Below the pieces are notes generated by a model. It saw only the letters and a list, made by a program, of their open reading frames with translations, was not told the origin of the DNA and did no database searches. The position numbers and the translations under genes are program-made. 64,000 nt of DNA, from the NCBI GenBank assembly GCA_965248925.1, contig CBDFLE010000005.1, positions 1,088,001 through 1,152,000 on the forward strand, given 5' to 3'. Shown in pieces: positions 3,135 through 54,221 of the stretch. Positions within the stretch are counted from its first letter, which is position 1. Every line of letters begins with the position of its first letter. This DNA is from Candidatus Multivoradales bacterium (GTDB lineage: Bacteria; Acidobacteriota; Thermoanaerobaculia; Multivoradales; J023).

Positions 3135-3148
3135 GGCCTTCTCCCAGT

Positions 3149-5131: not shown

Positions 5132-5234
5132 GGGCGAATTGTATCCGTGGTTTTTTGATAGATTTGGTCTACTAGTTCATCAGCGCCGACAAAGAGTCGG
5201 TATCGCAAATTTGGACGCACAGAAGGGAAGGTGG

Positions 5235-5849
5235 ATGGCCGGCGATGTGCACGAGATGCTGCAGCGGGTGCTGTCACGCGAAGCCGAGGGCTACGCTTGG
5301 CTCTACGACAGTTTCGCCACCAAGCTCTATCGCCGCCTCAGCCAGCGCTACGCTCATGCGGGAGGACTTGAGGCCGCCGACCTACTCCAGGATGCTTTTC
5401 TCTTTTTCCTACAGAATGACCACCGTGTCCTGCGTTACTTCTTAGACCGGACACCTCGCAGCGAGCAGACCGAGCAGCGCTTCGAGCGCCACCTTTGGGA
5501 TCTGGCCTGCGGTGTCGCCTCCAACCGGCGGCGGTCGGCGGCACAGCGCAAGGGTACCGTGCCTTTGGGCCATATCACCGAGGTCACCGCCTCGCCAGAA
5601 CCCGGCGCCGAACGCCGTCTGGTCGATCGCGATCGCTTGCAGAAGCTCAACGACTGCCTGGAGCGCTCGAGCGAGCGGGTCTACCTCTACTTCAAAATGC
5701 GTTTCGCCGACGGCCTGGCGCCAGAGGAGATTTGCGCGGCCACCGGTTGGTCACGGCGATCCACGTACAAGCTACGCCAAGCGCTCAACAAAGCGGTCGA
5801 CAAATGCGCGGAGGCTCTGGGCCTAGAGTTGACTGGTGGAGATCCTTGA
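5235..5849 (+). CDS. ECF-type sigma-70 factor
   Basis: Region 2 (AADLLQDAFL) and region 4 (FKMRFADGLAPEEICAATGWSRRSTY); ATG 5235 after GGGAAGG. Confidence 0.85.
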   Translation: MAGDVHEMLQRVLSREAEGYAWLYDSFATKLYRRLSQRYAHAGGLEAADLLQDAFLFFLQNDHRVLRYFLDRTPRSEQTEQRFERHLWDLACGVASNRRRSAAQRKGTVPLGHITEVTASPEPGAERRLVDRDRLQKLNDCLERSSERVYLYFKMRFADGLAPEEICAATGWSRRSTYKLRQALNKAVDKCAEALGLELTGGDP

Positions 5850-5851
5850 CC

Positions 5852-8707
5852 ATGCTCCCCAGGCGCTCATTTGTCAGCCGGCTGCCGGCACTTGCCCTGA
5901 CCGGGCTAGCAATCTGCTTGGCCAGCGCTTGCCGGCTGGCCGAGAGCGAGCCTCCGCCAATTCTCCTCAGCGCTGATCTGCGCCGTGCCCAAGAGGTCGA
6001 TATCGACGCCAACGGTCAGCTTCGTCCACGCTTTGTCGGCCGCCGAAACGACATCTACGTCTGTGTCGAGCCGGGCAAAGAAGAAAGCACCAGCCAATGG
6101 CAAGCCCGCTTCGCTCTCGGTCGCCAGCCCCGCCCAGCCGATCCGCCGCGCCCGGCGGTCCACAGTTTTCAGCAGGTTTGTTTTGGTGAGCCCATCCCGG
6201 CGGATTTACAGCCCAACCCGGCACTGATCCTGCACGGCGTGATCTACCGCCATGGCCAGCAGGTACACGAGATAGAACCCCAGATCTTCGCTTACCAGCT
6301 CGATGATCGAGACTTCGGAGAGTGGGTCAGCGAAGACCAGGTCAGCGCCTGTCAACCCATCTTCTCCAGCATCGGTCGCCGCTGTGATAGCGGCCTCGAT
6401 TGGCTTTGCTTCCAGATTTTTCTTGCCTGCCAGTCACGGCTGGCAGCTAACGACCCGCAGAACAAGGACTTGGCGGGCGACTTCGATGCTTTGGAAGAAC
6501 TGGCCAAAACCGCCAACCTGCCGTTAACCGCGGTCAAGCAGAAAGCCATCGCGGCCTTCTTTTTCCGCCAGAAGGGAAGTCCGGAAGCCTTTGCGGAAGC
6601 ACGCTCGCGACTCGCCAGCCTCCCTCCGTGGATCGAGCAACGGCCGGCGGACGAAGCTCATGGCATTGTCCATCAGACTCGCGGCGATTTAGCCGCTGCC
6701 CATGGCGACCTCAAGACAGCGCTGGGTTCATTCGAACAATCTACTCAATTGCTGCGCCGCGCGTTCAGCGTCGAACATCTTTCGAATCGTTTCAAGCGGG
6801 CCAAGATTATTGGGCTGGCGGGATCCGAGCGGGAAGCCATTGAGAGCCTGGAAGCGACCCTTGAGGATTGCACTGCCCTTACTTGCCGGCCGGCCTTGGT
6901 GGCCGCCGCCCGCGGCGACATCGCCTGGTGGACCCTGCTCGATCCGCAGAGCAGCAAGCAAGAAATCGCCGCGGAGGCCGAGTCCCTAGAGTCCGTCTTA
7001 CACCTGCTCGCCAGCGAGGGACCTGTTGCAACGGCGATTCAGCTCATCAACCTGGCGATGCTCTACTCCCGTCTCGACCAAGACCCCATGGCGACACTGA
7101 AAAAAGCCCTGAGCCTGGTCGAGGGTGACGATTCACGGCGAGCTCGCCAGGTCAAGGGGTGGTCCGAACTGGTGATCGGCCAAGAAGGCCTGAAAGCCGG
7201 AGCTCACGCCCAAGCGCTGGCGCATTGTACCCACGCCGCCACCAGCGCCAAGAATCACCAAGCAGAAACCCTGGAGGCCTTCGCTTGGACCTGCCGAGGA
7301 CGAGCTGAGCAGCAGAGGAAGAACTTCGACAGCGCCCTGGCGGCCTTCCGCCAAGCTCGCCACCTCTACGAATCGGCAAACCCCAATCAGCTGAGTCAGG
7401 ACATCTCTCAGTCTCCCGGCCCGCGTGCCGAGACTTACTACCGCGAGGCCAGTGTCTTGCTCGAGCGCGGCTCGGCGGGCGACCCGCAGCGGGCGTGGCG
7501 GCTGTTGGCGCAGCTCGACGTGCTGCCACCCATCGGTGTTCTGGTTGGCGCCAGTGACGCGGACCACGCCAAGATTGGCAAGCTGCGCGACGAGCTGGGC
7601 GACCTCGAGGGAATAGCCCCGCCCAAAGAAAGGGAGCTGCGCGAAAAGAGAAAACGTGAGCTGAGGGAGAAGATCCAGCGCCTGACTCGGGAGACCTACA
7701 ACGCGGTTCGGCGGCAGCCGAGTCCCGATCGTGAGTTGCGTTTTCGCGCCTTCACCATCGATGATCAGATCTTCCTGTTACACCGCGACAGCCAAGGCCG
7801 AGCGCGGTTGATCCGCAGTACGGAAATGGCCAGCCAGGAGCTGCGTCGGCTGACCGATCAGTTGACCCGAGCATTGGCGGGGATTGGTGAGCCGGTAGAT
7901 GATCAGTTGTGGCGGTCGTGGAGCGAGCCCCTAGCCGCTGCCTTGGTGCCCGAGACCAAGCTGCTGGAGGATCTCAGTTCTTTTGCCATGCACGGCGTTC
8001 TACAAGCAGTACCCCTCGCCGCGCTGCCTCTGGCAGAGGGCGGCTGGCTCGGCGATCTGACGACCGTCGTGGTCCGACCGGCGGGCACCAGCGAACTGCC
8101 GCCGACCGACAATCGGGGTGGCCGACCGCTGGTGGTGGTCGATCCGACCAGTGATCTGCGCAGCGGCCCGACATTGAAGAGCTTCTACAGCAAGACTCTG
8201 CCTGACGCCCACGTACTGTATCGCCAACAAGCTACGGTCGCCGCCTTCCGCAACGACCTCGCCGAGGCCAAATGGCTGCACATCGACGCCCACGGCAACT
8301 ACTTTGACTACTTCCCAGAACTGTCGAGCCTGAAGCTGGCCGATGGCGACTTCGCTATTTCCGATCTGGACGAAGTCTGGGCACGCCTCGACTTCGCCAA
8401 TCTGAGCAGCTGCCGCACTGGTAGCTGGCCGATCACTGCTAACGCCGGCCGCTACGGTATCGCCGGCCACGTGGCGAGATTGGGAAGGCCCTGGGTGCTG
8501 GCCAGTCGCACCGACCTCACCGACAAGCTGGCCAGTGCTTTCAACAAAGCCTTCTATCTGCTGATCGCCGATGGCCAGGCAGTACCCGAAGCCTACCGTC
8601 AAGCGCTGGCGCAGGTGCGCATCGAGCAACCCGCCAGCGAGTGGGCAGCGCTGCTGCTACTGCGCGCCGCGCCGACTCCTGCAGGGGTCACAGCGAGCGG
8701 TGGCTGA
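5852..8707 (+). CDS. TPR-CHAT (caspase-like) protease with Tat/lipoprotein-like signal
   Basis: Catalytic motifs WLHIDAHG and NLSSCRTG; LQAVPLAALP; EWAALLL tail; helical TPR-like middle; N-terminus PRRSFV...LASAC. Confidence 0.9.
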   Translation: MLPRRSFVSRLPALALTGLAICLASACRLAESEPPPILLSADLRRAQEVDIDANGQLRPRFVGRRNDIYVCVEPGKEESTSQWQARFALGRQPRPADPPRPAVHSFQQVCFGEPIPADLQPNPALILHGVIYRHGQQVHEIEPQIFAYQLDDRDFGEWVSEDQVSACQPIFSSIGRRCDSGLDWLCFQIFLACQSRLAANDPQNKDLAGDFDALEELAKTANLPLTAVKQKAIAAFFFRQKGSPEAFAEARSRLASLPPWIEQRPADEAHGIVHQTRGDLAAAHGDLKTALGSFEQSTQLLRRAFSVEHLSNRFKRAKIIGLAGSEREAIESLEATLEDCTALTCRPALVAAARGDIAWWTLLDPQSSKQEIAAEAESLESVLHLLASEGPVATAIQLINLAMLYSRLDQDPMATLKKALSLVEGDDSRRARQVKGWSELVIGQEGLKAGAHAQALAHCTHAATSAKNHQAETLEAFAWTCRGRAEQQRKNFDSALAAFRQARHLYESANPNQLSQDISQSPGPRAETYYREASVLLERGSAGDPQRAWRLLAQLDVLPPIGVLVGASDADHAKIGKLRDELGDLEGIAPPKERELREKRKRELREKIQRLTRETYNAVRRQPSPDRELRFRAFTIDDQIFLLHRDSQGRARLIRSTEMASQELRRLTDQLTRALAGIGEPVDDQLWRSWSEPLAAALVPETKLLEDLSSFAMHGVLQAVPLAALPLAEGGWLGDLTTVVVRPAGTSELPPTDNRGGRPLVVVDPTSDLRSGPTLKSFYSKTLPDAHVLYRQQATVAAFRNDLAEAKWLHIDAHGNYFDYFPELSSLKLADGDFAISDLDEVWARLDFANLSSCRTGSWPITANAGRYGIAGHVARLGRPWVLASRTDLTDKLASAFNKAFYLLIADGQAVPEAYRQALAQVRIEQPASEWAALLLLRAAPTPAGVTASGG

Positions 8708-8727
8708 GCTGCCGGCAGCTGTGATGC

Positions 8728-8738
8728 GGGGGGGGGGG
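8728..8738. repeat. G11 homopolymer upstream of anti-sigma-like gene 1
   Basis: TGC-G11-CAG-T7 read directly. Confidence 0.9.
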
Positions 8739-8851
8739 CAGTTTTTTTCGAGATTTCTTGCCAACCAGGGGTCAAGAACCTCTTCCCTTGACTCCTGGGA
8801 TGGTAGAGGGTGGCTTCTTCTCGACCTCTCACTAATTTATTGGGGGACATC

Positions 8852-40595: not shown

Positions 40596-40694
40596 TCTTC
40601 GCTGCTCGAATCTGAGGACCCTGTCAAGACGTGCCAGGGCGAGGTCTTACGAGGGGGTTGGGCTGCTGCCTCTTGCCTCGGTCTTGAATCCACC

Positions 40695-40878
40695 TAACTC
40701 CATGAGATGCCAGTGTTTATCCCTTGAGTACCGGCGACGTGTGAAGCTTACCACGAGCACCTCCACACGCGTCAAGGGGGGCTCATGGGGAAGCACTGGC
40801 CAATCCTCCCCCACGGTCTTCAACGGTGGGCCACAACGAAACCGGCTAGTGCAGAAGTTTGCTAGGTTCCCGGCGCAT
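40695..40878. repeat. Dispersed non-coding module, copy A
   Basis: Shares CAGTGTTTA, AGCTTACC-/-GTCAAGG, TCAACGG and CGAAACCGG..AGTGCAGAAG with copies B and C. Confidence 0.8.
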
Positions 40879-40893
40879 CGAAACGCGTCAAGC

Positions 40894-40993
40894 GCTCGGC
40901 TATCGGCGGAATCTGCCGATTCCGGTGGCACCTTAATTGGCTTGCTCGGCTATCGGCGGAATCTGCCGATTCCGGTGGCACCTTAATTGGCTT
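40894..40993. repeat. Perfect 50-bp tandem duplication with internal hairpin
   Basis: GCTCGGCTATCGGCGGAATCTGCCGATTCCGGTGGCACCTTAATTGGCTT x2. Confidence 0.95.
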
Positions 40994-41037
40994 GGCCGAA
41001 AGGCCACGGCTTGGTTCTCACTGTACGCCCCTGCCTC

Positions 41038-43185
41038 TCACCTATAGTCGAGTGCGCCATCGAAAACTCTTAAGTCGATGAATTCTAGGCCAGTATCATT
41101 GCTATCATAAATCTTGATATAGAGGTTGCCGTTGATCACATGGGTGATGGTGTCCGATGAAAAGACATGGAAGTCCTCGATGGCTATGCTCTTGAAAATA
41201 TCATCAACTACGGCCGAATAGAGATCGGCGGCCTTGCTCCTCTGTGTACGGTCGTCTGCAATTAGAGTATATCGGAACCCAAATCTACTTAGATGACCCT
41301 CAAGAAACTCAGCCTCAAAACCACTAGCGACTTCTATCCCTTCGACTCGAAATTGCTCCTTGCGACAGTATGTTTGGCCGCAGAGTGATATGGCTCCTTT
41401 GTCCAGGAGAGAGGCCATGTGCTCCTGATAGTCGTTCACGGACATGCCGAATTCAAGGTCTAGATGGATTTTGCTCTTGGCGACGGTCCTCGTTCTTCCT
41501 TGGTCGATTGCATGGCGAAATAGACGCTCATTGTCCTGAAACTGCACTCTTGATGAAACATCTACCGTGAAGTCATCTGGCCTGAGAGTCATAAAGAGAA
41601 CTTCCCCGTCAAGAGTTCCTTTCAGCCAGAACCTCTTGCCGTTATTCTTGAAGGGCCAGAAGCTCCTCTTGTTCTCATGAGGATAGGTTTTTATTATCGA
41701 ATATTCCCTGCCCTGTAAGTAGAGGAGAAACTCATCAAAAGACTCATGAGAAGTAGTTGAAAGTCTAATTTTTGTGTAATCCTCAAGGAGGGAAACGTCG
41801 AAGCGAAAAGAGCGACCTTCTACGCCCGAGAGCCAGACATTACCATTCGGCTTGATTGCAATGACACCATTCTGCTTTCTTACATCCCAGGAAAAGTCGT
41901 CTTCTGGGAACACCTCGTTCAGGCATCGCTCATCCTCACAATTCTTACCCTGCATCAATAGATCCAGGAGGTCATAATCGGAAACATTTGGGGGGTTCAA
42001 GGCCAAGCTCACGGAGTTGACGCGATATTCTGGACTTTCTAGCACCTCTCCGAGGTAGCGAGATTTCGACATGTAGATCATGTCTAGCTGAGCAAAAAAT
42101 ATGGTGTCGCTATCATGATCGAAGGACATCTTGAAGGTGGCATCGGCGTCAAGCTTGTATTGTGTCGGAAAGACGAACCGAGACAAGGTGCCATGAGTGG
42201 TATCCAGGATGTAGTAACTGATCCGGTTGTGTTCCAGTAGCGAATCGGCCAATTGTCGGCGCTTGATTCGAAGTATCAACTTGTCGCCCATGCATGCCAA
42301 TATGCTTGTTTCGGAGATGTCAAAGTCAGGGTCTTCGAACAAGTCAACTCTTGAGAAGTGAGCTTCGTCTCCGTTGGATTTCCACAGGAAAGGATTGCGC
42401 TTCATGGGGCTGGTGTGGTATGCCGTACCAAACATCTTACCATCGGCCACCTTGAAGACCTCGGAGAGCCTCAAGGTGTCTTCTGGTGTCGATGTCCCAC
42501 TTCTTAGTACGCTATCGTAGCGAAGGTAGTACGAGTTATTCAGGCTACTGCCCGATGGGGCATACCAATACTGCTCATTTTGATAGATCGGGGTCAAATG
42601 CTGTTTCGATTGAGCTACATCAGAATTGGAGGGGCGACGACTTGCGTCTTCAGGTGCCGGCTGTATCAGTGTCCAACTGGCGCCATTATCGAGACTGCGA
42701 TATAAATTACCACCAATGAACATCTGGATAGAACCGTCACCGCTAGTGATTTGAGTGAACTTTGCGCCATCTGAATACAATAGAGGGCTCGCCAGATTCT
42801 TTGCGGTCTTTGCCCAGCGCGCGAAGAAGAAATCCGGAACGTTGTCGAGCTTATCTCCTTTGATTAGCGCATTCTGTTCAGACATTGCCGGGGTCGAAAC
42901 CTCCTCCCAAGATAGGCCGCTATCTAGCGACCTGTACACTCGGAATGGTTTGCATCTAAAGGCTGGAAGAAGGCCGTCCGTACCGCAGTCAACATCTTCG
43001 TTGTCAAAGTACCCGATTGCGATGAGGGCTCCACTAGTTGCTCGATGTAGATTAAGGATATTTAGCGATATGGAGTCAGCGTTGCGGATTGTGCCTAGGT
43101 CGACCCAGAGAGAAGAGTCCTCTTTGACACAGCCAAGCACTAGCACCAGCAGTGTAAGAAGCACGGGGTGATGTAGTCGTTTCAT
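41038..43185 (-). CDS. Low-GC lipoprotein with BNR/Asp-box repeats
   Basis: Lipobox VLGC; YRSLDSGLSW and YRSLDNGASW. Confidence 0.7.
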   Translation of the reverse strand: MKRLHHPVLLTLLVLVLGCVKEDSSLWVDLGTIRNADSISLNILNLHRATSGALIAIGYFDNEDVDCGTDGLLPAFRCKPFRVYRSLDSGLSWEEVSTPAMSEQNALIKGDKLDNVPDFFFARWAKTAKNLASPLLYSDGAKFTQITSGDGSIQMFIGGNLYRSLDNGASWTLIQPAPEDASRRPSNSDVAQSKQHLTPIYQNEQYWYAPSGSSLNNSYYLRYDSVLRSGTSTPEDTLRLSEVFKVADGKMFGTAYHTSPMKRNPFLWKSNGDEAHFSRVDLFEDPDFDISETSILACMGDKLILRIKRRQLADSLLEHNRISYYILDTTHGTLSRFVFPTQYKLDADATFKMSFDHDSDTIFFAQLDMIYMSKSRYLGEVLESPEYRVNSVSLALNPPNVSDYDLLDLLMQGKNCEDERCLNEVFPEDDFSWDVRKQNGVIAIKPNGNVWLSGVEGRSFRFDVSLLEDYTKIRLSTTSHESFDEFLLYLQGREYSIIKTYPHENKRSFWPFKNNGKRFWLKGTLDGEVLFMTLRPDDFTVDVSSRVQFQDNERLFRHAIDQGRTRTVAKSKIHLDLEFGMSVNDYQEHMASLLDKGAISLCGQTYCRKEQFRVEGIEVASGFEAEFLEGHLSRFGFRYTLIADDRTQRSKAADLYSAVVDDIFKSIAIEDFHVFSSDTITHVINGNLYIKIYDSNDTGLEFIDLRVFDGALDYR

Positions 43186-43363
43186 GAGAGGTGAACCCTT
43201 TTCGTTGGACAGGCTATTTCCTTTGCTAAGGTGGACTCATAGTCCATCAGTTCAGGCTGCGGTATTTCCGGGTTTCTTGTGGATCCGATATTTGCGACCT
43301 CTGCGGACCTAGCCAGTCAAACTTCTCCCTAAAATCCTCTGTCTCCACCTCTTCAGAGGATAC

Positions 43364-43465
43364 ATCCGCCAAGCCTTGCTGGACGGTACCTACTCGCCGC
43401 AGCCTGTGCGGCGAGTAGAGGTCCTGAAGCCCCCGGGGCATGAGCGAGATGCTGCGTGGGATTGT
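43364..43465 (+). pseudogene. N-terminal fragment of a group II intron reverse transcriptase
   Basis: Translates IRQALLDGTYSPQPVRRVEVLKPPG, matching the Y.P.PVRRV.IPKP.G motif. Confidence 0.8.
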
Positions 43466-43511
43466 TGGTGTCTTGCCTCCGCTCTCCGAATCTTTCCCAA
43501 CAAACAAGCCA

Positions 43512-45119
43512 CTAGCCTCTCCAATCCTTGACGTAAAGAACATTAGTGTTATTCAACTGAATCACACTCTGTTTCCGCAACATCGCGGACGCCTCTTTTC
43601 CATACTTGTCAATCTCATCAATAGCGACGAAGGACTGTTTCTCAATCGATAGATAGAAACGAAAAAGGTTCGCGACGGAGTCATTCTCGACATTCTTAAA
43701 GAGAAGCGAGTCATGCGCAATGAATGGTAGAATCGTTGCCTGGAACACCGCCAAATCTAAGACGATCAGACTTGCGTATGCCGTGCCAGTCCCAGTATCT
43801 TCGAAAACCTCGTACGTATAACTATTCTCCTCGATTCCGATCTCAGGACTCTTTCGCTCAGGCCCAAAAATCAAGGTAACAATCCTGCGAAGCGTATCAT
43901 TCAATATGTTCTTGATAAGCTCGATCTCTTCGGCCTTCCTGGCAGAGAGGCTTTTCTTAAGTCCCTTGATATCTTCTCGAAGGCACTGGTTGTTCTCGAA
44001 ATGAAGATTCTCGTGTCTCGCTTCGCCTAGATCCACTGCTAGGTCATACACACGGTCTACTATGACTGTAGGCTGATCGATAGTCGATAATGTCTTGGCC
44101 ATCCGAGCTTCGATATTCGCGATCTCAGCATCGATTCGAGCCAAGTTTTCCTTCAGGTTTGCCTCAGATCCTCGAAGCTCTGTTTTCAACAGCTTCGCAA
44201 CGCCGCTATGGAACTCCTCGACTCTCGTCAAACGCCCCTTGTCAATTTCTGGAAAAAATCTGCTTAACGCAGCAAAGTGTCGACTCTTGATATGGCGATT
44301 GCCTGTGATATTCCCTTGAATTCGAGCCAATTTGCTTTCAAGATCCAGTTTAACAGAAAGCAGTTTATCCTTATGAAGCTTCAACTCTAATACTTCACGG
44401 TTGACTACTTCCGAGATATTAGTCGCGTACTTTGCCAGGTTAACTTTAATGTCATCGATTTCAGTCTCAATCGCAGCAATCCGACTTTCATTGGCTTTGG
44501 CTTTCCGCTTGTCGATTTTCGGAATAATCTGAGTCTTGAACGCGGCGTTCAGCGCCTTCCGCTCTTCTTCTCTAACTTTGAGGCTATTGGCAAGTTTCTT
44601 GATGGGTCCAAATCGATCAAATGTCTTAATCAAGTTGTCGACGCACTCTCGACCAGGCTTGACTTGCACCACATGAAGAGGTTTTTGCACGCTTAGGTTG
44701 TCTTTGCCCCACACCCTGAAGTACAAACCAACCAAAGACCGAAAACTTATTTCCTCAAGCTGGATTCCGTAGGCTGCCTTAAGAATGGCTGTGTATTCTT
44801 CAATAGGGATCGGCGTCGTTGGCTGATAATCTTCGCTGCACTTATATACCAAATCGGGCTGAAACGTCCCTCGCCGAAAGCGCATAAGTTCCCGGTTGAA
44901 CGTGAAGGAGAAGAAATAGTCGTGGTCCCCCAGCTCGGCGACCAGATCAATATTATGCTTTAGTAATGAATTGCCGCCAAAGGCGAAGTCGATGACCATC
45001 AGGAGGGTCGACTTGCCTATGGAGTTCGTACCGTTCTCATCTCCAAGCACTACATTCAGGCCAGGGCGAAAAGGGATCCGGTCGGTGCGAAATTTGTCGC
45101 AACGAACTTCAGTCAACAT
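43512..45119 (-). CDS. ABC/SMC-like ATPase of a Lamassu / ABC-three-component system (DUF2326-type, LmuB-like)
   Basis: GLNVVLG..NSIGKST, central coiled coil, DTGTGTAY, IAHDS. Confidence 0.88.
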   Translation of the reverse strand: MLTEVRCDKFRTDRIPFRPGLNVVLGDENGTNSIGKSTLLMVIDFAFGGNSLLKHNIDLVAELGDHDYFFSFTFNRELMRFRRGTFQPDLVYKCSEDYQPTTPIPIEEYTAILKAAYGIQLEEISFRSLVGLYFRVWGKDNLSVQKPLHVVQVKPGRECVDNLIKTFDRFGPIKKLANSLKVREEERKALNAAFKTQIIPKIDKRKAKANESRIAAIETEIDDIKVNLAKYATNISEVVNREVLELKLHKDKLLSVKLDLESKLARIQGNITGNRHIKSRHFAALSRFFPEIDKGRLTRVEEFHSGVAKLLKTELRGSEANLKENLARIDAEIANIEARMAKTLSTIDQPTVIVDRVYDLAVDLGEARHENLHFENNQCLREDIKGLKKSLSARKAEEIELIKNILNDTLRRIVTLIFGPERKSPEIGIEENSYTYEVFEDTGTGTAYASLIVLDLAVFQATILPFIAHDSLLFKNVENDSVANLFRFYLSIEKQSFVAIDEIDKYGKEASAMLRKQSVIQLNNTNVLYVKDWRG

Positions 45120-45333
45120 AGGAAATGATCCGGGTGTCGAAATCTATTTCGATACATCCCAAGAGGTAGAGCACATCGATCGCCAGGAGAAATTGATCAA
45201 CGCTTTCCAACTTCTTGGCGGTTTTATTGTACAGTTTTATAAGGTCGATTGAGCCCGGTCGCTGCTCAAGGATGAGACCTACAGCGCCTAAAGCAGAGTC
45301 CTTCAGCGCCACCATCTTGTTCGGTGTGATCAT
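45109..45333 (-). CDS. ABC-3C middle component (LmuC-like)
   Basis: 74 aa, MITPNK...LAIDVLYLLGCI; overlaps both neighbours. Confidence 0.8.
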   Translation of the reverse strand: MITPNKMVALKDSALGAVGLILEQRPGSIDLIKLYNKTAKKLESVDQFLLAIDVLYLLGCIEIDFDTRIISYVD

Positions 45334-45587
45334 TCGAATACCTCGCAGTTTTGAACGAAGAATGACGTCACGATCTCGGCCGCTTCTAGGGTATCTGGCT
45401 CAGTTTTGATGTACAACCAGTCGACGATGTTCGAAAAGACCTCGTGCTGTGGTAATCCAAGACTCTTCTGTTTAAGATAATAAACTTTCACCTGTGTCGC
45501 GATTAGGTCGGACACTGCAGGGCTCAAGCGCTCCATCTCCAGGAACTTACTCCGGATATATTGATAATAATCAGCAACATTATACTT

Positions 45588-46860
45588 CACTGCTGTCCCG
45601 TTAACTTCGCAGAAAAATAGGCTCAAACCTCCCTGGTCTTGATAGAATCAGTCATCGCTAAACGGCTGAATCAAAGGGAGATCTGAGCCTTGGCACATCA
45701 TAGCACCGTCTTCGCCCAGCTACTGCAACTGATTTCGAGACATGAATTCGAGGCCCTCGCAAAACGCCACCACGCCGGTCGCCAGTTCCGCACTGCGAGC
45801 CGCTGGTCGCAGCTGGTGGCTCTGATGATGGCCCAGCTGTCCGGGCGTTCTAGCTTGCGCGACATCGTTGACAATCTACGAGCGCAGCGGCACAAGCTCT
45901 ACCATCTCGGCTGCCGAGTCCTGTCGCGATCTAACTTGGCACGGATCAACGAAGAGAAGCCCTATCTCCTTTTTGAAGAGCTATTTGGGAGACTTCTGGG
46001 GCATGCTCAGGCAGTGGCGCCCAAGCATACGTTCCGGTTCAAGAACCGCTTGTTCTCGCTTGACGCCTCGGTGATAGACCTCTGTCTGTCGATATTCCCA
46101 TGGGCGAAGTTTCGTACGACCAAGGGAGCGATCAAGCTGCATGTGGGGTTGGATCACGGTGGCTACTTGCCTGCCTTCGTTGCGATCTCGGATGGAAAAA
46201 CAGGTGACATCGCGGGCTGCAAGAGCCTGACGCTGCCACGAGGAAGCATCGTAGCTTGTGATCGTGGTTACAACAGCTACAGCTGGTTTCGTCAGCTGAG
46301 CGAGAAGGGTCTTTTCTTTGTGACCCGTCTGAAGCGCGGGGCCAAGTACCGCGTGACCGAACGTCGAAGAGTCAATCGTTCCAAGGGTTTGATGAGCGAC
46401 CAAACGATCGAATGGACCGGTGTGAAGGCGTGTCGTGACTGCCCGATGCCTCTGCGGAGAGTAGGCTATCGCGACCCTGAGACCGGCAAGATCTACTATT
46501 TCTTGACGAACCTGTTCCGCCTGTCACCTCAGACCATTGCCGATATCTACCACGAACGTTGGCAAATTGAACTCTTCTTCAAGTGGATCAAGCAGAATCT
46601 GAAGATCAAGACTTTCGTCGGCACCAGCCGCAACGCCGTGCTGACTCAGCTTTGGATCGCCATGTGCGTCTACCTATTGCTCGCTTTCATCAAGCACAAG
46701 CACCGTCTTTCCAGTAGTTTACGGGAGGCCTTGCGCCTCCTTCAATTGAACCTCTTTGAGCGCCGCGACCTCATGGCCCTCTTGAAACGAGAGCCGCCGC
46801 CGATCCCAGGACTAGACGAAAGACAACTGGTAATCGTCGGAAGTTAACGGGACAGCAGTG
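45588..46860 (+). mobile_element. IS4-family element, copy 2 (1273 bp)
   Basis: Same IRs as copy 1; 9-bp TSD ATTATACTT (45579-45587, 46861-46869). Confidence 0.97.
45690..46847 (+). CDS. IS4 family DDE transposase
   Basis: Near-identical to 37863-39020 (R/H and M/I differences). Confidence 0.95.
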   Translation: MAHHSTVFAQLLQLISRHEFEALAKRHHAGRQFRTASRWSQLVALMMAQLSGRSSLRDIVDNLRAQRHKLYHLGCRVLSRSNLARINEEKPYLLFEELFGRLLGHAQAVAPKHTFRFKNRLFSLDASVIDLCLSIFPWAKFRTTKGAIKLHVGLDHGGYLPAFVAISDGKTGDIAGCKSLTLPRGSIVACDRGYNSYSWFRQLSEKGLFFVTRLKRGAKYRVTERRRVNRSKGLMSDQTIEWTGVKACRDCPMPLRRVGYRDPETGKIYYFLTNLFRLSPQTIADIYHERWQIELFFKWIKQNLKIKTFVGTSRNAVLTQLWIAMCVYLLLAFIKHKHRLSSSLREALRLLQLNLFERRDLMALLKREPPPIPGLDERQLVIVGS

Positions 46861-47381
46861 ATTATACTTGATCTTTCTTTGAGTTGGAATCGGCATCGAT
46901 TCGTCCAATTTTGCTTCTAGACTTCTTGGGTCATACTCAAGATCTGGCTCATCGGGATAGTCCGCGACTGTGTAGAGCCCCTCAATAACAACCCGGATGT
47001 CTCTCTCGATCTTGTAGGAAGATTGAAGTGTTTGCTGCTCCTCCTGTCGAAGCAGGGATCGTTTTTTCCGCACGAGCGCCCTGTACTCGTCAGCGATTCT
47101 TGGCTTGTCAAATTTCTTATGGCATGTCGCACACAATGGAATCAAGTTGTTTGGATGATTCACGTCAGCGTGCAGCTTTACCTCATTTCTCAGCTCATAC
47201 AGTTCGCTTTTACTTGGGTTGACGGGATAGATGTGGGCTAGGTCGTACATCTTATATGACCTTAAGTTCTTGACGTAGAAGAGATCACGTCCACACAGCG
47301 GGCAAATGCCTCTAGTTTGCGTGGTTAATGCCAACTCTTCGGCAGGGCTGTATTTCCGGCGATCATTTGTCATAGGATTTC

Positions 47382-47783
47382 CGAGGTTGGATGAACTACT
47401 TCGGCATTTCGGACTATTACCGACCTGTCGCAGAAATCGACAAGTGGATCCGAAGACTCATCTGAATGTGTTACTGGAAACAGTGGCGCTGGGTGCGCAC
47501 GAAGGTCCGTCATCTGCTCGCTTTGGGAACGAGTCGTCGTCAAGCAATTTTCACCGCGCTCAGTCGCAAGAGCTACTGGGACTTGTCGAAAACCTTGGCG
47601 ACACAGACCGGAATGACGAACAAATTGCTTCAAAGTCAGGGGCTGATCAGTTTCCGCGATCTGTGGATGAAAGCCCATGGCTATGCTTGAAACGATCGTG
47701 TGCTCCATCATTGTGAATCGCCTAGTGCGGACCCGTATGCTAGGTGGCGTGTTGGCCGGGGTTAGATCCCCCGGCTACCCGAT
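47382..47783 (+). mobile_element. 3' part of a group IIC intron: maturase domain X remnant plus ribozyme domains V and VI
   Basis: RGWMNYF...WIRRLI*MCYWKQWR; DV GAATCGCCTAGTGCGGACCCGTATGCTAGGTGG (from 47715); DVI ending CCCGAT. Confidence 0.88.
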
Positions 47784-49120
47784 TAGCCGTCTGCACCGGT
47801 TTGCCTAACTGCATTCCGGATGGGTGCCGGAATTGCGTTGTCGTATAGTCGGTCATCTCCGACTGACATGCCTTGTTCTAGGATGAAGTCTGCCAGAATC
47901 ATCGCCTCATCGTCGTCCACTTCGCCAGACTCTAGGATTCCAAGCAGGGAACTCTGCGCCCCCCATTGATCTGCGCCGTACGCCACTGACCACATTCCAA
48001 CAAGGCAACCGCCTCGACTCTCGGTATCGACGACAGCGTGGAACAGTCGGCCTAAGAAGCTAGCAAATCCATTCATTGCGCTGAAGGGCCATCCCACAGT
48101 TCCGAGGCACTTCTCCATTTCATCCAAGAAGACACGCACGAACCTCGCAGACTCTGCTCCTACTGCATCGCAATAGGGCGCGAGCCGATCATCGGAAGAA
48201 AAGAAGTCAATTACTGGCTCTATGTAACCGCTGTAGACGTGATCTCTATACTCGGGCTCTGCGAGTGCTCTGTGCACCTGATCCCAGTGAGGTGCCGATC
48301 CATTGTCGGCTAACAGCACCTTTAGCGCGTCATTGCGAGGCGGCGTATCGGTTCGTAATGCCTCGATTCGATCAAAGTGCTCGGCAAAGTGAGCCGCAGA
48401 TGGATAGCGCTCAGTAGCGCTTGGCCGAGTAGCCCTTTGAATTACAGGAGAGTACGAACAACGATGGTGGTGATCTGGGTCTCTGCCGGTCATGACAAAG
48501 TTGAGCAGCTTCCCTAGCGAGTAGATGTCACTCTGAACCGTAGCACTTTTGAGGCTGTCCCGCTGCTCGGGCGCAACGTAGTACGCATGGCCGTAGTTGT
48601 CGACACTGCTCCGCGTGCGGTTCGACTGAGCACTGAGGTCCCTGCCCAGGCCAAAATCGCACACGACCACAGAATTGCAGTCGCGAGTGTCCAGGACTAA
48701 TGCATTGGATGGACTGATATCCCTATGCAGGATGCCGAGCTCGTGCGCCGACTGGATTGCACTCAGAATTCGGCGGAACATTACGACGCGCTCCGGTTCC
48801 TCCAGTGCAGTGTTGTTCCTCTTAATGAACCGATGAAGATTCATAGCTGCCACAGGCATGGCGTACCAGATGCCAGGCCCAACCAAGTTTCCCGAGTGGC
48901 CTAGGAGATCAACTACGCCCGCCACGCCCCTAAGACGTTCAAGCAGTGTGATTTCCCGCTTGAGCCGTGCTTGATAGACAGGATTGTTGTTGACTGAACT
49001 CCTTAAGCTCTTCACAGCAATGCCGTCGCCAGTCTTACGGTGACTGAATCTCTTTACGAGCGCGAATGCACCCTCGCCCATGACAGCGGTAGTTTCGTAA
49101 TCGCGAAGCTCAATACTCAT
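47783..49120 (-). CDS. Cytoplasmic Ser/Thr protein kinase carried as an integron-type gene cassette
   Basis: GEGAFALV, AVK, HRDISPSN, DFGLG, YVAPE, DIYSLG; begins after GTTAGCC and ends in GGCTAA. Confidence 0.9.
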   Translation of the reverse strand: MSIELRDYETTAVMGEGAFALVKRFSHRKTGDGIAVKSLRSSVNNNPVYQARLKREITLLERLRGVAGVVDLLGHSGNLVGPGIWYAMPVAAMNLHRFIKRNNTALEEPERVVMFRRILSAIQSAHELGILHRDISPSNALVLDTRDCNSVVVCDFGLGRDLSAQSNRTRSSVDNYGHAYYVAPEQRDSLKSATVQSDIYSLGKLLNFVMTGRDPDHHHRCSYSPVIQRATRPSATERYPSAAHFAEHFDRIEALRTDTPPRNDALKVLLADNGSAPHWDQVHRALAEPEYRDHVYSGYIEPVIDFFSSDDRLAPYCDAVGAESARFVRVFLDEMEKCLGTVGWPFSAMNGFASFLGRLFHAVVDTESRGGCLVGMWSVAYGADQWGAQSSLLGILESGEVDDDEAMILADFILEQGMSVGDDRLYDNAIPAPIRNAVRQTGADG

Positions 49121-49129
49121 TGCGAATCC

Positions 49130-49220
49130 GGCTAACAATAAAGGTTCTATCTGAACTCCAAGCCAAGATCTCCCATCGTGCGGACGCGCCTCCCCGAGTT
49201 CAGATGGAAGCGAGTTGTAC
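49130..49220 (-). other. attC-like integron recombination site
   Basis: Minus strand: GTACAAC - TTCCATCTGAACTC - loop - GAGTTCAGATAGAA - GTTAGCC. Confidence 0.7.
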
Positions 49221-49347
49221 GAAGCCGCCGCCTGGCACGGACGTTGCGTTTAGGGGTTTGTATCCCTCAGCCGGGGACGAGCCCCGAGCCATCGTGGCAG
49301 TCGAAGGCAGGTGAGATCGCGGCATAAGTAGGGGGGGATTAGAGCGC

Positions 49348-49557
49348 CTCAGAGGTCGAAAAATTCCGCCGATTTCTTCCCCGCACACGCTCTGTAAGTG
49401 CTTGACCGGTCAGTGTTTAATCCCGTCGTGCCCATAATGGAGACAGCTTACCATGCGGGGGCACTGCGATGTCAAGGGCACTGTGGGGGCAGCACTCTGC
49501 CCCGCTGCCCCGTGCTTCTCAACGGCTGACCGCACGAAACCGGTTAGTGCAGAAGGT
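49348..49557. repeat. Dispersed non-coding module, copy B (cut on the right by IS21)
   Basis: Collinear with 53994-54221. Confidence 0.85.
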
Positions 49558-49710
49558 TGTGTCAGTGACCGCCCATATGGAGCCAAAGCGGGATCGCCGT
49601 AATGGCGCCAGTAGAAGATCGCCGTAATGGAGCTAGTAGCTGCTCTGTTCGAGGATCTCGGGCCTCTCCCGGGGATACCTTACTGCCAGTCGAAATGGCA
49701 GGAGGTGTCC

Positions 49711-51243
49711 GTGGGGAATCGGAGGTTCGAGATGTACGAGTACCGTCATGTGCTGGTCCGAATGCGGGCTGGCGACTCAGATAGAGAATTGGCTCGTGCG
49801 GGCCTGATGGGGCGTCGCAAGTCTGGTGAATTTCGTCGTTTGGTGACGGAATTGGGCTGGCTGAAGCCGTCGCGGCCGTTGCCCGAGGTGGCGACGTTGG
49901 CGGCGCAAGCGGTCCCGAAACGACCGAAACAGTCGTCGACATCGTTGGTAGAGCCACACGCTGAGATGGTTCGTCAGTGGGCGTCCCAGGGCGTTGACGG
50001 GACGACAATCCACCAGGCGCTGGTGCGCAAGTTCGATTTCCCAGGCAGCTACTCGTCGGTGCGGCGCTATCTGCGCCGGCTGGGCAGGTCGCAGCCTCGG
50101 CGCACGGTGATCCTGGACTTTGCACCCGGCGAGGCAGCGCAGGTGGATTTCGGCTCGGGGCCGCGGCTGGTCGAGGGCGGCAGTGAGATCCGCACGTGGT
50201 TCTTCGTGATGACGCTGTGCTGGAGTCGGCACCAGTAGGCGGAGCTGGTTCTCGACCAGAAGGTGGCGACGTGGCTGGCCTGCCATCGCCGAGCCTTCGA
50301 GTTCTTCGGCGGGGTGCCCCTGCGGGTGACCATCGACAACGCCAAATGTGCGATCACGCGAGCCTGCTGGCGAGATCCGGAGGTGCAACGATCCTACGCC
50401 GAGCTCGCCGAAGGCTACGGCTTCAAGATCGACCCGTGCCCACCTCGGGATCCCCAGAAGAAGGGGCGAGTGGAGTCGGGTATCAAGTACGTGAAGCGGA
50501 ACTTCCTGCCTCTGCGGGAGTTCCGAAACCTGAGCGATGGCAATGGTCAGCTCGAAGCCTGGGTGCTCGGCCGGGCAGGCAATCGGATCCACGGCTCGAC
50601 CCGTGAGCGGCCCCTGACGCGCTTTGCCGAGACCGAGCGTGATCTGCTCCAGACCTTGCCGGCTGCCGCCCCGGAGCCTTCGACCTGGGCCCGTGCGATC
50701 GTGCCTGCAGATCACCATGTGCGCCTTGAGCATGGCCGCTACTCAGTGCCCTACACACTGATCGGTGAGCGGTTGTGGCTGCGGGCAACACCGACCGCGG
50801 TTCAGGTCTACGAGGAGTACACGATGGTGGCGGCGCACCCGCGCATGAGACCTGGAAAGCGCTCGACGGTCGATGACCACCTACCGCCGGAAGCTCTGGC
50901 GCACAAACGGCGGACACCGGATTGGTGCCGCTCGCAGGCCGAGTCGATTGGCCCTTCCTGCCAGGGGCTGATCGACGCCCTATTCGCCGACCGCGTGCTG
51001 GACAACCTGCGGGCTGCGCAAGGTGTCATCCGGCTCGCAGAGCGCTACGGAGAGGACCGATTGGAGGCCGCTTGCGAGCGGGCGCTGGCCTTCGAGAATC
51101 CGCGCTATCGGTGCGTCAAGACGATCCTCGAGCGGGGGCTCGACCAGCACTGCGTCGAGCCCCCGGAGTCCGTCCAGCTTGCCGCGAGTTACACCGGCTC
51201 GGGCCGCTTCTGCCGTGACACCCGAAATCTGTTGGCGCACTGA
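49711..51243 (+). pseudogene. istA: IS21 transposase with in-frame TAG at 50236-50238
   Basis: PGEAAQVDFG, WSRHQ*AE, DNAK, KGRVESGIKYVK all in one frame. Confidence 0.9.
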
Positions 51244-51256
51244 TGTGGAGGCCCCA

Positions 51257-52060
51257 ATGAATCCTGTACCCGAGATCGCCCCGCTGCTCAAGCGACTCCG
51301 TCTGTCGGGAATCCTCGAGAGCCTCGAGGAGCGCAATCGTCAGGCGATCACCAAGAAGCTCCCGTACACCGACTTCCTCACCCTGCTCATCCAAGACGAA
51401 GTAGCGCGGCGCGACCAGAAGAAATTCGACCTGCGCCTGAGGCGTGCGGGTTTCCAGTCGAACAAGACGATCGAGAGCTTCGACTTCGACTTCAATCCGA
51501 GCGTCCACCGCGAGCTGCTCCAAGAGCTTGCGGCCTGCCGTTTCCTCGACGAGCACGTCTGCGTGCTGATCGCCGGACCGTGCGGGACCGGCAAGAGCCA
51601 CATCGCCCAGGCGCTGGGTCACTGCGCCGTACGCGCTGGCCACGACGTGCTCTTCACCACCACGAGCAAGCTCCTCGGCTCGCTCAACGCGGCGCGCGCC
51701 ACGGGCACCTTCGAGCGTCGCTTCCAGGCCGTCGCTCGCGTCGACCTGCTGATCCTCGACGACTTCGGCCTCAAGCCCTTACGGGCACCGCAGGACGAGG
51801 ATCTCCACGATCTGGTCGCAGAGCGTTACGAGCGCACCTCGACCGTCGTCACCAGCAACCTCGATTTCACCGAGTGGGGCGACGCCTTCACTAACCGCCT
51901 GCTAGGCGCCGCCACACTCGACCGTCTGCGAGACGCCGCATACCGCGTCGTTCTCGACGGCGAGAGCTACCGAAAACCCAGGCCCATGCCGAAAGCCAGA
52001 AAGGTCGCCGAGGCCGCAAGCAAGGACCAGAAGACGAAGAAGGGAGGCCACACGGCTTGA
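51257..52060 (+). CDS. istB: IS21 helper AAA+ ATPase
   Basis: GPCGTGKSH, LLILDDFG, VTSNL, LDRL. Confidence 0.95.
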   Translation: MNPVPEIAPLLKRLRLSGILESLEERNRQAITKKLPYTDFLTLLIQDEVARRDQKKFDLRLRRAGFQSNKTIESFDFDFNPSVHRELLQELAACRFLDEHVCVLIAGPCGTGKSHIAQALGHCAVRAGHDVLFTTTSKLLGSLNAARATGTFERRFQAVARVDLLILDDFGLKPLRAPQDEDLHDLVAERYERTSTVVTSNLDFTEWGDAFTNRLLGAATLDRLRDAAYRVVLDGESYRKPRPMPKARKVAEAASKDQKTKKGGHTA

Positions 52061-52346
52061 GCATCCGCGAGCCGGACCGGATGGGCTATGGAAGCTGCCA
52101 CTCCTACGGAAATCGCTACGCGATTACCGCATCCGTTTGGAAAACGCTGCGCGTTTCCCACAGCTCCCACAGCCCCGACGACGGTTTGGTTGCGATGGAT
52201 CAGGATAAGGAAGAAGAGGAAAGGCAGAGCTTGCCAACTGCCTCCTCACACGATAGACACAAACCGCCTGAGATCCTCGAACGAGCACTTCTGGGTGGCT
52301 CCATTACGCCGATCATGGGTGGCTCCATTAGGGCGGTCAGTGACAG

Positions 52347-52742: not shown

Positions 52743-53801
52743 CTAGGCTGCAAGGAAGTTCGCAGTCATGCGAGCGACTACGCTGGCGGTATGGCCGTCT
52801 GTCAGGTGGGCGTAGCGCTTGACCATGGCCAGCGTCTTGTGGCCCATAGCCTCGGCGAGTTCGGCCAACGTCGCGCCGCTCATCGCGAGGTAGCTGGCAA
52901 ATGTGTGGCGAAGATCATGGAACCGGAAATTTTTGAGGCCAGCTGCCTCACAAGTCCGCTGCCATTCGCCCTGGGGGAAGGACGTTGAGCCGGTACGGCT
53001 GGGAAAGACGAGATCGGTTCCGAGGCGTCGGGCGGTCTTCCACTGTGACAGTACCTCTTCGGCTAGCCCGCTGATGGTCAGTGAGCGGCGCTCGCCGTTC
53101 TTGGTGTGGTGGATGAGTGCCACTCCGCGATTAAAATCCACATCCCTCCATTTGAGGTTCAACAGCTCGCCGCGCCGTGCTCCGGTGCAAAGGGCCATCG
53201 CCACCAGCGGATAGAGACGGGGCTCGGTGCTGTCCTTACAGGCGGCAAGTAGCCGGCGCTTTTCGTCTTCGTCGAGGAAGCGAGCACGGCCACGTCCTTG
53301 AGCGGGTTTGACGACTCTCAGACAGGGGTTGTCGTCCATCCAGAACCATTCCTTGACACCAGCGCTGAACGCTCCGCTCAAGATGGTGAGGTAGCGATGC
53401 ACGGTACCCGCCGCTAGTTGCTTGCCAGAGATCCCCTTGCCGCTGGTCAGGCCGTCTCTTGCCTCGGCGATGATGGCGGGGGTGACCTGGCTGAGCCGTG
53501 TATTTTCTCCCAGCGCCTGGCACCACCACCGAAGATTACGGGCGGTGTCCTTGGCTCGTGCCAGCCGGGGGACTTTCACTTCGATGTAGCGATCGATAAG
53601 ATCGCCCACGGTGTGCTGTTCGGCTTCGGCTTCCGGCTGATAGCGGCGTTGCCGTATCGCCTCAGTCGTACTATCGCCCCATCGTTGGGCTTCGCGCCGC
53701 GTGGAAAAAGTCTCTGAAGCCCGAGGATGCCCCTTCAAGAAAATCTGTGCCCGATACCGGATCTTGCCCTTCGCCGTCGTACGCTTTTCGATGTGTGCCA
53801 T
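52743..53801 (-). CDS. Phage/ICE-type tyrosine integrase
   Basis: Arm-binding N-terminus, TGARRGEL, TKNG, FHDLRHT, MGH, RYAH. Confidence 0.95.
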   Translation of the reverse strand: MAHIEKRTTAKGKIRYRAQIFLKGHPRASETFSTRREAQRWGDSTTEAIRQRRYQPEAEAEQHTVGDLIDRYIEVKVPRLARAKDTARNLRWWCQALGENTRLSQVTPAIIAEARDGLTSGKGISGKQLAAGTVHRYLTILSGAFSAGVKEWFWMDDNPCLRVVKPAQGRGRARFLDEDEKRRLLAACKDSTEPRLYPLVAMALCTGARRGELLNLKWRDVDFNRGVALIHHTKNGERRSLTISGLAEEVLSQWKTARRLGTDLVFPSRTGSTSFPQGEWQRTCEAAGLKNFRFHDLRHTFASYLAMSGATLAELAEAMGHKTLAMVKRYAHLTDGHTASVVARMTANFLAA

Positions 53802-53934
53802 GAGTTCCTCCAAACAGGTCGTCCCCGTGGGACGGATTTCTGTGGGGTACTCAAGGGGAAGCACTGGCCAACAACGCCCCACTGCATACAAAACGTCGCG
53901 AGACGTAAGTTATTGCATTTGCAGTGGTTAAGCA

Positions 53935-53993: not shown

Positions 53994-54221
53994 CTCAGAG
54001 CCCAAAAATCCCGTCGATTTCTTCCAAGCGCACACTCTGTAAGTGCTGGACCAGTCAGTGTTTAATCCCGTCGTACCCATGATGAGAGTAGCTTGCCACT
54101 TCGCGTCTTCTGGGTGTCAAGGGGCACTGGCGGCGCAGCACTCTGCCCTGTTGCCCCATGGTTCTCAACGGCGGGCCACACGAAACCGGTTGATGCAGAA
54201 GTCTGCCAGCTTCCGGCGCAT
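53994..54221. repeat. Dispersed non-coding module, copy C
   Basis: Collinear with copies A and B. Confidence 0.85.

Follow-up and report, generated by a model that had tools for sequence, protein, structure and literature searches.

We analysed a Ser/Thr protein kinase gene and the sequences on either side of it in a stretch of 64,000 nt, here called the window, from Candidatus Multivoradales bacterium (contig CBDFLE010000005.1, positions 1,088,001 to 1,152,000), which belongs to a genome of 8.0 Mb (G000). The gene lies in a low-GC segment at ~40.9-49.2 kb (45-56% GC vs 62.5% for the genome), a mosaic made up in order of a 715-aa open reading frame (ORF), an ABC-3C system, the stump of a group II intron, the kinase and the stump of an element of the IS91 family of insertion sequences (ISs). 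An initial annotation had taken the kinase for an integron cassette whose recombination site (attC) had been invaded by an intron, in an array without the integron integrase IntI. We consider it probable, at roughly three chances in four, that the kinase is a former integron cassette.

Direct reading of the plus strand showed intron-like sequence whose last letters are CTACCCGAT, ending at 47783 and followed by TAGCC at 47784-47788. The kinase ORF runs on the minus strand to a TAA stop codon at 47785-47783, the last base of which comes from the terminal T of the intron, and GGCTA(A) overlaps this stop codon. Translation from the ATG at 49120 gives 445 aa, and the ORF list offers an alternative TTG start at 49138. 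Nine nt 5' of the ATG lies GTTAGCC (minus strand, 49136-49130), and beyond it an inverted repeat with two arms of 14 nt (49145-49158 and 49196-49209; 93% complementary, spacing 37 nt), one of only two inverted repeats of at least 11 nt within 150 nt in the region 40600-49600. All the sequence features that the initial annotation had named, namely the hairpin, GTTAGCC before the ATG, the GGCTAA stop and the junction CCCGAT/TAGCC, were present where it had placed them.

The segment 47376-47690 translates as the C-terminus of a group II maturase (~104 codons) with one in-frame stop at 47463-47465. We confirmed 303 loci with related maturases and kept 80 of them (one genome per species), with 64-86% amino acid identity over 74 aa; the intron tails of 39 were aligned, and all 39 had the same 3' end as the window, with similarity ending there. 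A full-length intron of ~1.94 kb with both junctions was available at 28 of the 80 loci. Their 5' exons ended in GT (26/28) or in the longer TTGT (16/28), and many were recognisable as attC bottom strands with RYYYAAC-hairpin bodies. The 3' exons began with T in all 28 cases and matched RRRY at three or more of four positions in 23 (82%, compared with ~31% by chance); the exon TAGCC itself was also found at two loci (L044 and L051). According to PMC7923331 and PMC3001079, IIC-attC introns insert at the R'' box in TTGT/T, on the bottom strand and antisense to the cassettes, CALINs (clusters of attC sites lacking integron integrases) included. Since the exon pattern of the 28 relatives is this published signature, we assigned the stump to the IIC-attC lineage. 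At the kinase, the 3' side of the insertion shows the T followed by AGCC, antisense and on the stop codon; the 5' exon with its TTGT and hairpin is deleted. The maturase relatives and the junctions thus agree with the lineage and orientation given in the initial annotation, and the identification of 47374-47783 as the truncated and mutated 3' end of an intron from the group IIC-attC lineage holds at the level of sequence.

The window copy of the intron is dead. It shares 87-93% DNA identity with longer introns in three related genomes (G158, G179, and G133) up to a breakpoint at ~47374-47376, directly beside the ABC-3C effector gene's start codon. Neither an intact ribozyme nor an intact intron-encoded protein is left: ~410 of ~1940 nt remain, the maturase frame carries the stop, and domain V has changed relative to the 39 aligned relatives (CGC to CGT and GGGG to GTTGG). 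Rfam searches of the whole window at gathering thresholds, and of 46800-49700 up to E 10, detected neither a group II intron nor any other family of relevance, and in the same genome the stump, its maturase and the hairpin were each found once only. IntI exceeded the NCBIfam cut-off in 3 of 5 genomes with related introns. One relative (L042) lies ~11 kb from an IntI in Ca. Accumulibacter phosphatis NC_013194, presumably the same record as CP001715. An IIC-attC intron of Ca. Accumulibacter phosphatis (CP001715) is listed in PMC3001079 and may be the same intron as L042.

The kinase gene is intact. The protein has a Pkinase domain (Pfam PF00069, 7.4e-28) followed by a family-specific C-terminal domain of ~220 aa with no Pfam match, and the catalytic residues K37, HRD132-134, N139, DFG155-157, and APE are invariant in the alignment of its homologues (A4). 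The PADLOC profiles Stk2 (4.8e-45), mad6 (1.1e-38), and PD-T4-6 (1.6e-36) matched the kinase domain only, and the Stk2 match was partial, with residues 10-259 of the kinase aligned to profile positions 128-361 of 500. Domain, catalytic residues and profile matches all point to a predicted Hanks-type defence kinase of the Stk2/PD-T4-6 type. Homologues at 13 loci stand in defence islands, with pAgo-SIR2, AbiTii, AAA_21-RloB, and helicase-nuclease genes as neighbours, from which we infer a role in phage defence of the abortive-infection type. The closest proteins (P0002, P0003, and P0005) were 50-56% identical, and a scan of metagenomes found no homologue above 38% identity. A single-sequence query by the pattern method against genome contigs found no relatives; an alignment query was needed.

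The two boundaries of the gene are of cassette type. A cassette is expected to show G/TTRRRY shortly before its ORF, complementary to its own R'' box; TTAGCC at the 5' side of the kinase is complementary to GGCTA at the 3' side of the unit, and TAGCC is identical to the 5 nt that follow the intron. We found homologues of the kinase as cassettes at 2 of the 32 loci examined (L102 and L213), with 33-36% identity over the full length; a further locus (L098) was ambiguous. At L102, from a Sediminibacterium metagenome-assembled genome, the homologue has elements E4 and E5 of a six-element array on its two sides; in this array 5/5 cassettes show perfect complementarity between 5'-TTNNNN and their own R''. 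L213, on a metagenome contig, has an attC (94-215; 21.5 bits, with E 1.8e-4 for the locus and 6.8e-3 over 12 loci) that ends 24 nt before the ATG. At 17 nt past the stop comes ACCTAACAAGCA, with the complementary ACCTAAC, and the gene is enclosed by the pair GTTAGGT/ACCTAAC. One of the 32 loci had no start; of the 31 homologue ORFs that were scanned, 3 had a complementary heptamer pair around them, compared with ~0.2 expected by our own estimate. The matching boundaries and the homologues in two other arrays are in line with the cassette-like nature that the initial annotation had given the gene.

The same annotation had read the hairpin at 49130-49220 as the attC of the neighbouring cassette. 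The stem has 14 continuous bp, one T.G pair, no bulges and no extrahelical bases; the overall folding energy was unexceptional, at -15.8 kcal/mol on the plus strand (z -1.38, 18/200 shuffles as good) and with z +0.37 on the minus strand. Spacers of 8 and 4 nt separate the stem from the boxes GTTAGCC and GTACAAC, which fit GTTRRRY and RYYYAAC, respectively, each at 3/4 degenerate positions. The extrahelical bases on the bottom strand and the unpaired central spacer of ~5-6 nt that mark an attC are both lacking. A rule-based scan for an RYYYAAC-like box, a perfect stem of at least 10 bp and a GTTRRRY-like box within 50-150 nt gave 10 matches on both strands of the genome (16 Mb of strand sequence), two of them the window hairpin on each strand; with so few matches, the arrangement is rare. 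The exact pattern of the arms occurred 22 times in a collection of genome contigs (~17 by chance, own estimate), in no case with the same flanks. A scan of 47300-49600 for promoters and terminators gave nothing beyond the shuffled expectation.

We built two covariance models, R1 (9 sites) and R2 (22 sites), from attC sites in the loci of the intron relatives. With filters off, the hairpin scored at most 2.1 bits with R1 and at most 1.2 bits with R2. As a positive control, R2 recovered 13 attC sites (E 1.4e-9 to 8.2e-3) in four unseen class 1 integron plasmid regions, and it also found canonical attC sites in the genome of the window, the best at 57-59 bits. The miss of a site by R2 is no proof of its absence, as all six attC-like elements of the L102 array were missed. 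Of the two outcomes that together the initial annotation had named as speaking against it, the lack of an attC covariance match with R1 and R2 did occur, and kinase homologues were nonetheless cassettes in L102 and L213. The L102 array (1423-8830) has long elements of ~130-200 nt, and its cassettes include the kinase homologue, AAA_21 with RloB, and ArsR with MerT. About 2 kb upstream of it lies a tyrosine recombinase of 335 aa, for which TIGR02249 gave two partial matches (92 and 91 bits, both under the cut-off) that skip model positions 180-239.

A different identity for the hairpin came from related genomes. We searched 201 genomes of the same order (G000 and 200 others) with 47376-49330, and 49129-49326 matched in five of them (G133, G158, G179, G117, and G108) with 74-84% DNA identity. 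The similarity begins exactly at AAC (49134), and the four bases beyond differ in all 8 copies that have a flank. In these genomes the stretch is the first ~195 nt of a block of ~2755 nt, in which the hairpin end is followed by ~250 nt, a 380-aa Y2 transposase, a 289-aa tyrosine recombinase and the far end GCGAAGCGGCTTNGTRCAAC. The transposase scored 436-438 bits against the IS91-family model NF033538 (cut-off 125) and carries the Pfam domains Y2_Tnp and Zn_Tnp_IS91, while the best families for the recombinase were integron integrase (TIGR02249, 195 bits, cut-off 265) and XerA-like (192 bits), both below cut-off. The full block is conserved in G133, G179 (2 copies), and G158. G117 has a head-to-tail tandem that shares the AAC and is cut by contig ends, the G108 copy has an internal deletion, and G133 has an additional miniature copy consisting of the ends only. 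Over nine copies 96.8% of the cells of the stem are paired, 4/14 pairs show a compensatory change, and the covariation score was reached by 0/500 shuffles. The T.G pair, invariant in 9/9 copies, pairs only on the strand that is plus in the window. The IS91-family transposase was not found in the window by tblastn, and the rest of the element is absent from both the window and the genome.

PMC13181058 describes IS91-family elements as having subterminal palindromes at oriIS, with the target 5'-GTTC or 5'-CTTG directly outside, and as moving through single-stranded intermediates. In the copies compared here a palindrome lies at the oriIS end, directly beside a tetranucleotide of the GTTC type: in 8/8 flanked copies the hairpin end adjoins xxxxAAC, which is GTTRRRY-like on the other strand and reads GTTA three times, GTTC three times and GTTG twice (GTTAGCC, GTTCGGC in two copies, GTTATCC, GTTGTAC in the tandem, GTTCGCC, GTTATGC, and GTTGGGC). 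On account of the homology, the contiguity with a transposase and the palindrome with GTTN outside, we regard 49134-49326 as an IS91-type element's truncated end. By homology, then, the hairpin would be the terminal palindrome of an IS91-family element and not the attC of a preceding cassette, and this part of the initial annotation was given up. We had also considered the hairpin as a terminator or operator, an idea abandoned once the homology appeared. The 382-aa integrase of the window was rejected as its partner, as the ORF of ~380 aa beside the hairpin in the relatives is the IS91 transposase. The motif TGGCAC-N5-TTGC, which points into the element, presumably resembles a sigma-54 promoter.

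Of the nine far ends of the element that were examined, four run up against an attC body supported by the model (L300 2747-2803, L299 3524-3581, L307 3035-3091, and L311 913-973); a fifth is attC-like by eye, and five of the nine are without model-supported attC. The genes after the hairpin end at L299 are cassettes, followed by attC sites. The IS91-type element thus occupies attC sites at the G/TT position. TTGYAC at its far end complements GTACAAC, perfectly in G158 and with one mismatch in 6 other copies, and the 15-nt terminal repeat sits ~85 nt inside the hairpin end, so that the unit is cassette-shaped; the ends of the element itself (TTGYAC and GTACAAC-hairpin-G) mimic those of a cassette. 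The GTT at both ends could be terIS, result from a 3-bp duplication or mark a recombination crossover, and the mover may be the HUH transposase with its GTTN target, the recombinase of the element or IntI.

These features also suit a literal reading, in which the hairpin is the genuine attC of a preceding cassette that carried the IS91 transposase and the tyrosine recombinase, and the locus is the remnant of a two-site CALIN. The order R''(GTACAAC), 4 nt, 14-bp stem-loop-stem, 8 nt, R'(GTTAGCC) is that of an attC, the complementarity of the far end is as in a circular cassette, both junctions of the element lie at the GTT of attC sites, the invariant T.G pairs on what would be the bottom strand, and the failure of R2 at L102 makes a failed match indecisive. 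We judge this reading unlikely, as the same model that detects the 13 class 1 sites and those of the host scores the hairpin so low, extrahelical bases are missing from the stem, and the hairpin belongs physically to an element that encodes a bona fide IS91-family transposase; PMC13181058 describes this family as having subterminal palindromes at oriIS and a GTTC-type target beside it. The head-to-tail tandem in G117 also fits rolling-circle transposition.

Returning to the hairpin as an IS91-type end, the element of ~2.76 kb, with its tyrosine recombinase and cassette-like ends and a stem that folds only on the bottom strand, would insert precisely at the attC G/TT. It could represent an undescribed, third class of attC-specific mobile elements, with the IIC-attC introns and the IS1111-attC elements as peers, and the kinase cassette would then be a fossil caught between two attC parasites; we offer this as a tentative and rather doubtful possibility. 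Some IS91-family members in ISfinder carry an integrase ORF. A literature search for IS91, tyrosine recombinase and attC together found no account of such elements at attC sites, which is no proof that none exists.

No IntI was found in the genome of the window, where the best single stretch reached 72 bits against the TIGR02249 cut-off of 265 (the genome is 96.9% complete). The statement of the initial annotation that the window has no IntI was correct; the 382-aa integrase in the window reached only 43.7 bits. IntI exceeded the cut-off in 10 of the 23 other genomes sampled in the family, which makes integrons common there, and in none for G000. The genome-wide search with the attC model, which scored 150 of 9968 first-look candidates, did locate attC sites elsewhere in G000. 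On contig C6 (4952518-4955144) lies an integrase-less array of three units, each an ORF with a co-oriented attC downstream (L204 10019-10083, 11338-11402, and 12550-12645; 59.3, 21.0, and 15.3 bits, the third weak with E 0.12). It is a genuine CALIN with 3 cassettes. A solo attC on the same contig (4373276-4373336, L205 9977-10037; 57.7 bits) overlaps the end of a 603-aa ORF, and nhmmer found no attC in G000 beyond these four. At the kinase locus, the CALIN-type remnant of the initial annotation stands as far as cassette boundaries without IntI are concerned, and falls short in that no attC is detectable in the window, where at least two are needed. As weak matches to TIGR02249, ~14 near-identical genes for a 372-aa tyrosine recombinase also surfaced on contigs C4, C5, and C6, several within ~55 kb on C5 (e.g. 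923173-976324).

The former-cassette reading rests on three things at the locus, the intron on the stop codon, an attC-favouring element at the GTT of the other boundary and the complementarity of the boxes, together with the homologues that are cassettes in L102 and L213 and the frequency of integrons in the family. Several results weigh against it. An attC for the kinase was not found downstream, where the intron stump and the ABC-3C operon lie instead: no covariance match reached 6 bits in 40600-49600 with filters off, all 12 matches there being at most 5.8 bits, and with default filters the best match in the window had E 1.7 to 2.8 and was located elsewhere. Only 5 nt of the supposed attC survive, and TAGCC fits RRRY at 3/4 positions, which occurs by chance in 31% of cases. 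At 30 of the 32 homologue loci the kinase has no cassette context, most being ordinary defence islands, and the gene was not found in the other 200 genomes sampled in the order. IIC-attC introns can also enter terminator-like hairpins, according to PMC7923331. IS91-family elements need only a GTTN-type tetranucleotide beside oriIS (PMC13181058), and for this reason GTTAGCC is possibly a plain IS target.

Taken together, the last two points describe a kinase that was never a cassette: the intron entered a terminator-like hairpin, a targeting that the lineage retains (PMC7923331), the IS91-type element hit a chance GTTA with its target of just 4 nt (PMC13181058), and the shared TAGCC is a coincidence. 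Some members of the intron lineage are marked as lying outside arrays in Table 3 of PMC3001079, and the five far ends of the element without model-supported attC fit as well. This seems quite improbable to us. Past the forced T/GTT, AGCC agrees at 4/4 positions (~1 in 256) exactly at both gene boundaries, attC-type 3' exons are found in 82% of the insertions of the lineage, homologous kinases are cassettes at two loci, and complementary heptamer pairs surround homologue ORFs more often than expected. Highly improbable, in our estimate, is a third possibility, an intermediate of cassette formation after the model of Leon and Roy, in which the intron sits behind the terminator of the kinase and awaits recombination with an attC-borne intron copy. 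The geometry of gene and intron is identical to what that model, as outlined in PMC7923331, expects; the upstream TTAGCC, however, already complements the 3' box, which is not predicted for an uncaptured gene, and the intron is truncated and mutated.

We therefore prefer to see the kinase as a former cassette, and consider it probable, at the same rough odds of three in four, that 47374-49326 is an excerpt of ~1.95 kb from a former cassette array, now immobile, in a mosaic low-GC defence island. From the anatomy of the segment, its homologies, the contexts into which such elements have inserted in relatives and the lack of IntI, we infer a former attC and the following order of events. The kinase would have moved as a cassette of the form TTAGCC...kinase...GGCTAAC-attC. 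An IIC-attC intron may then have retrohomed into the bottom strand of this attC at R'' (TTGT/TAGCC), antisense to the kinase, and so parted the gene from its attC. An IS91-family element with a Y2 transposase and a Xer/IntI-like tyrosine recombinase would have landed with its palindromic end against the GTT of the 5' boundary, a placement that has its parallel at attC sites in related genomes. Later rearrangements presumably deleted the 5' three quarters of the intron and the attC, joined the stump to the ABC-3C operon, and cut the IS91-type element down to ~195 nt. With no integron integrase in the genome, further recombination here would have ceased, and nothing at the locus can recombine now. 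The features on which this history draws are collected in Table 1.

Table 1. Features of the kinase segment and its neighbourhood in the window, and copies of the IS91-type element in related genomes.
Feature	Position	Strand	Remarks
Intron remnant	47374..47783	+	~410 of ~1.94 kb; maturase C-terminus, domains V and VI, end CCCGAT
Residual 3' exon TAGCC	47784..47788	+	equals GGCTA of the R''-type box on the minus strand (GGCTAAC before insertion)
Ser/Thr protein kinase gene, intact, 445 aa	47783..49120	-	Pkinase domain and ~220-aa C-terminal domain
Putative cassette 5' boundary	49121..49136	-	GTTAGCC (49136-49130) and 9-nt leader before ATG
Terminal ~195 nt of IS91-family element	49134..49326	+	by homology to elements in related genomes; remainder lost
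Subterminal palindrome of IS91-type end	arms 49145-49158 / 49196-49209	+	stem covariation
Repeat GTTGTACGAAGCCGC	49214-49228	+	inverted at the far end of the IS91-type element in relatives
TGGCAC-N5-TTGC motif	49233-49247	+	conserved in all copies of the IS91-type element
ABC-3C operon (HNH_2-CTD11 effector, MC7, DUF2326 ATPase)	43512..47373	-	Pfam, PADLOC; context only
IS91-type copy	L300 1-2755		
IS91-type copy	L296 1937-4662		
IS91-type copy	L307 306-3043		
IS91-type copy	L297 112-2806		
IS91-type copies	L298		tandem, junction 1884-1886
IS91-type copy	L299 3573-5301	-	
IS91-type copy	L308		miniature

Other insertions and repeats lie in and around the low-GC segment. The ABC-3C effector HNH_2-CTD11 is split by an IS4-type IS at 45587-46861, of which the genome has 13 further full-length copies (96-100% identity) and one split copy. 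The 715-aa ORF (41038-43185) has an N-terminus resembling a signal peptide and no Pfam match, and lies at the left edge of the low-GC segment. A repeat of ~160-230 nt occurs in the same orientation at ~40700-40870, 49330-49555, and 54045-54201, and once more on contig C6 of G000 (5021157-5021383); it has no Rfam match, and the 382-aa tyrosine integrase (52743-53891) is closely preceded by one copy on its upstream side. These repeats may be attachment-site copies of stacked integrative elements. Between the copy at ~40700-40870 and the 715-aa ORF, a 50-nt unit is present in two perfect tandem copies (40896-40995). A single-copy IS21-family element (istA, istB) lies at ~49556-52083, with a stop in istA between the ORFs 49627-50238 and 50263-51243.

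Compared with known systems, the intron resembles the IIC-attC introns of the S.ma.I2 lineage in that its maturase relatives lie at TTGT/T in the bottom strands of attC sites, and in that it runs antisense to the cassette gene. A gene cut off from its attC by an intron is also reported in the literature, as for aadB with S.ma.I2 (PMC3001079), and so are truncated 3' fragments in arrays (PMC7923331). It differs in that the window keeps the last ~410 nt only, with the 5' exon and attC deleted, and in that the stump, with its domain V substitutions and in-frame stop, runs straight into the ABC-3C effector gene at its start codon. The hairpin element is like IS91, IS801, and IS1294 (HUH Y2 rolling-circle elements) in the contiguity with an IS91-family transposase in relatives, the palindrome downstream of the transposase gene and the tandem in G117. 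IS801 and IS1294 use 5'-GTTC (PMC13181058), and the element here has GTTN outside the hairpin end in 8/8 copies. Unlike these, it carries the 289-aa Xer/IntI-like recombinase, has GTT at both ends, ends exactly at the R' box of a canonical attC in at least 4/9 far ends, and has its terminal repeat ~85 nt inside; only ~195 nt of it are retained in the window. With CALINs and solo cassettes the locus shares cassette-type boundaries in a genome without IntI, which has a CALIN on C6 as well; it departs from them as a single cassette stripped of its attC, short of the two attC sites of a CALIN. The kinase is like the anti-phage kinases Stk2, PD-T4-6, and MAD6 in its PADLOC matches and in the defence-gene neighbours of its homologues, and unlike them in that the match is limited to the kinase domain, the C-terminal ~220 aa being family-specific.

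In our verdict the locus represents a known kind of structure, a stranded cassette, one part of which has been re-identified. Defence genes in cassettes have been published (bioRxiv 10.1101/2024.07.02.601719), as have truncated IIC-attC introns and stranded cassettes, and the stakes are modest. With the kinases of the window, L102, and L213, a family of the Stk2/PD-T4-6-like type joins the genes that have been seen as cassettes, and the locus shows a route by which a cassette can become fixed in a defence island after the loss of the integron. The analysis also shows that a hairpin resembling an attC, AAC/GTT boxes included, can turn out to be an IS91-type end, and that attC covariance models trained on proteobacterial sites miss entire arrays in other phyla, as at L102. 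The IS91/recombinase element is a more interesting by-product than the kinase relic itself. Several genomes of the order carry it at attC crossover points, and it is relevant to the colonisation and rearrangement of integron arrays.

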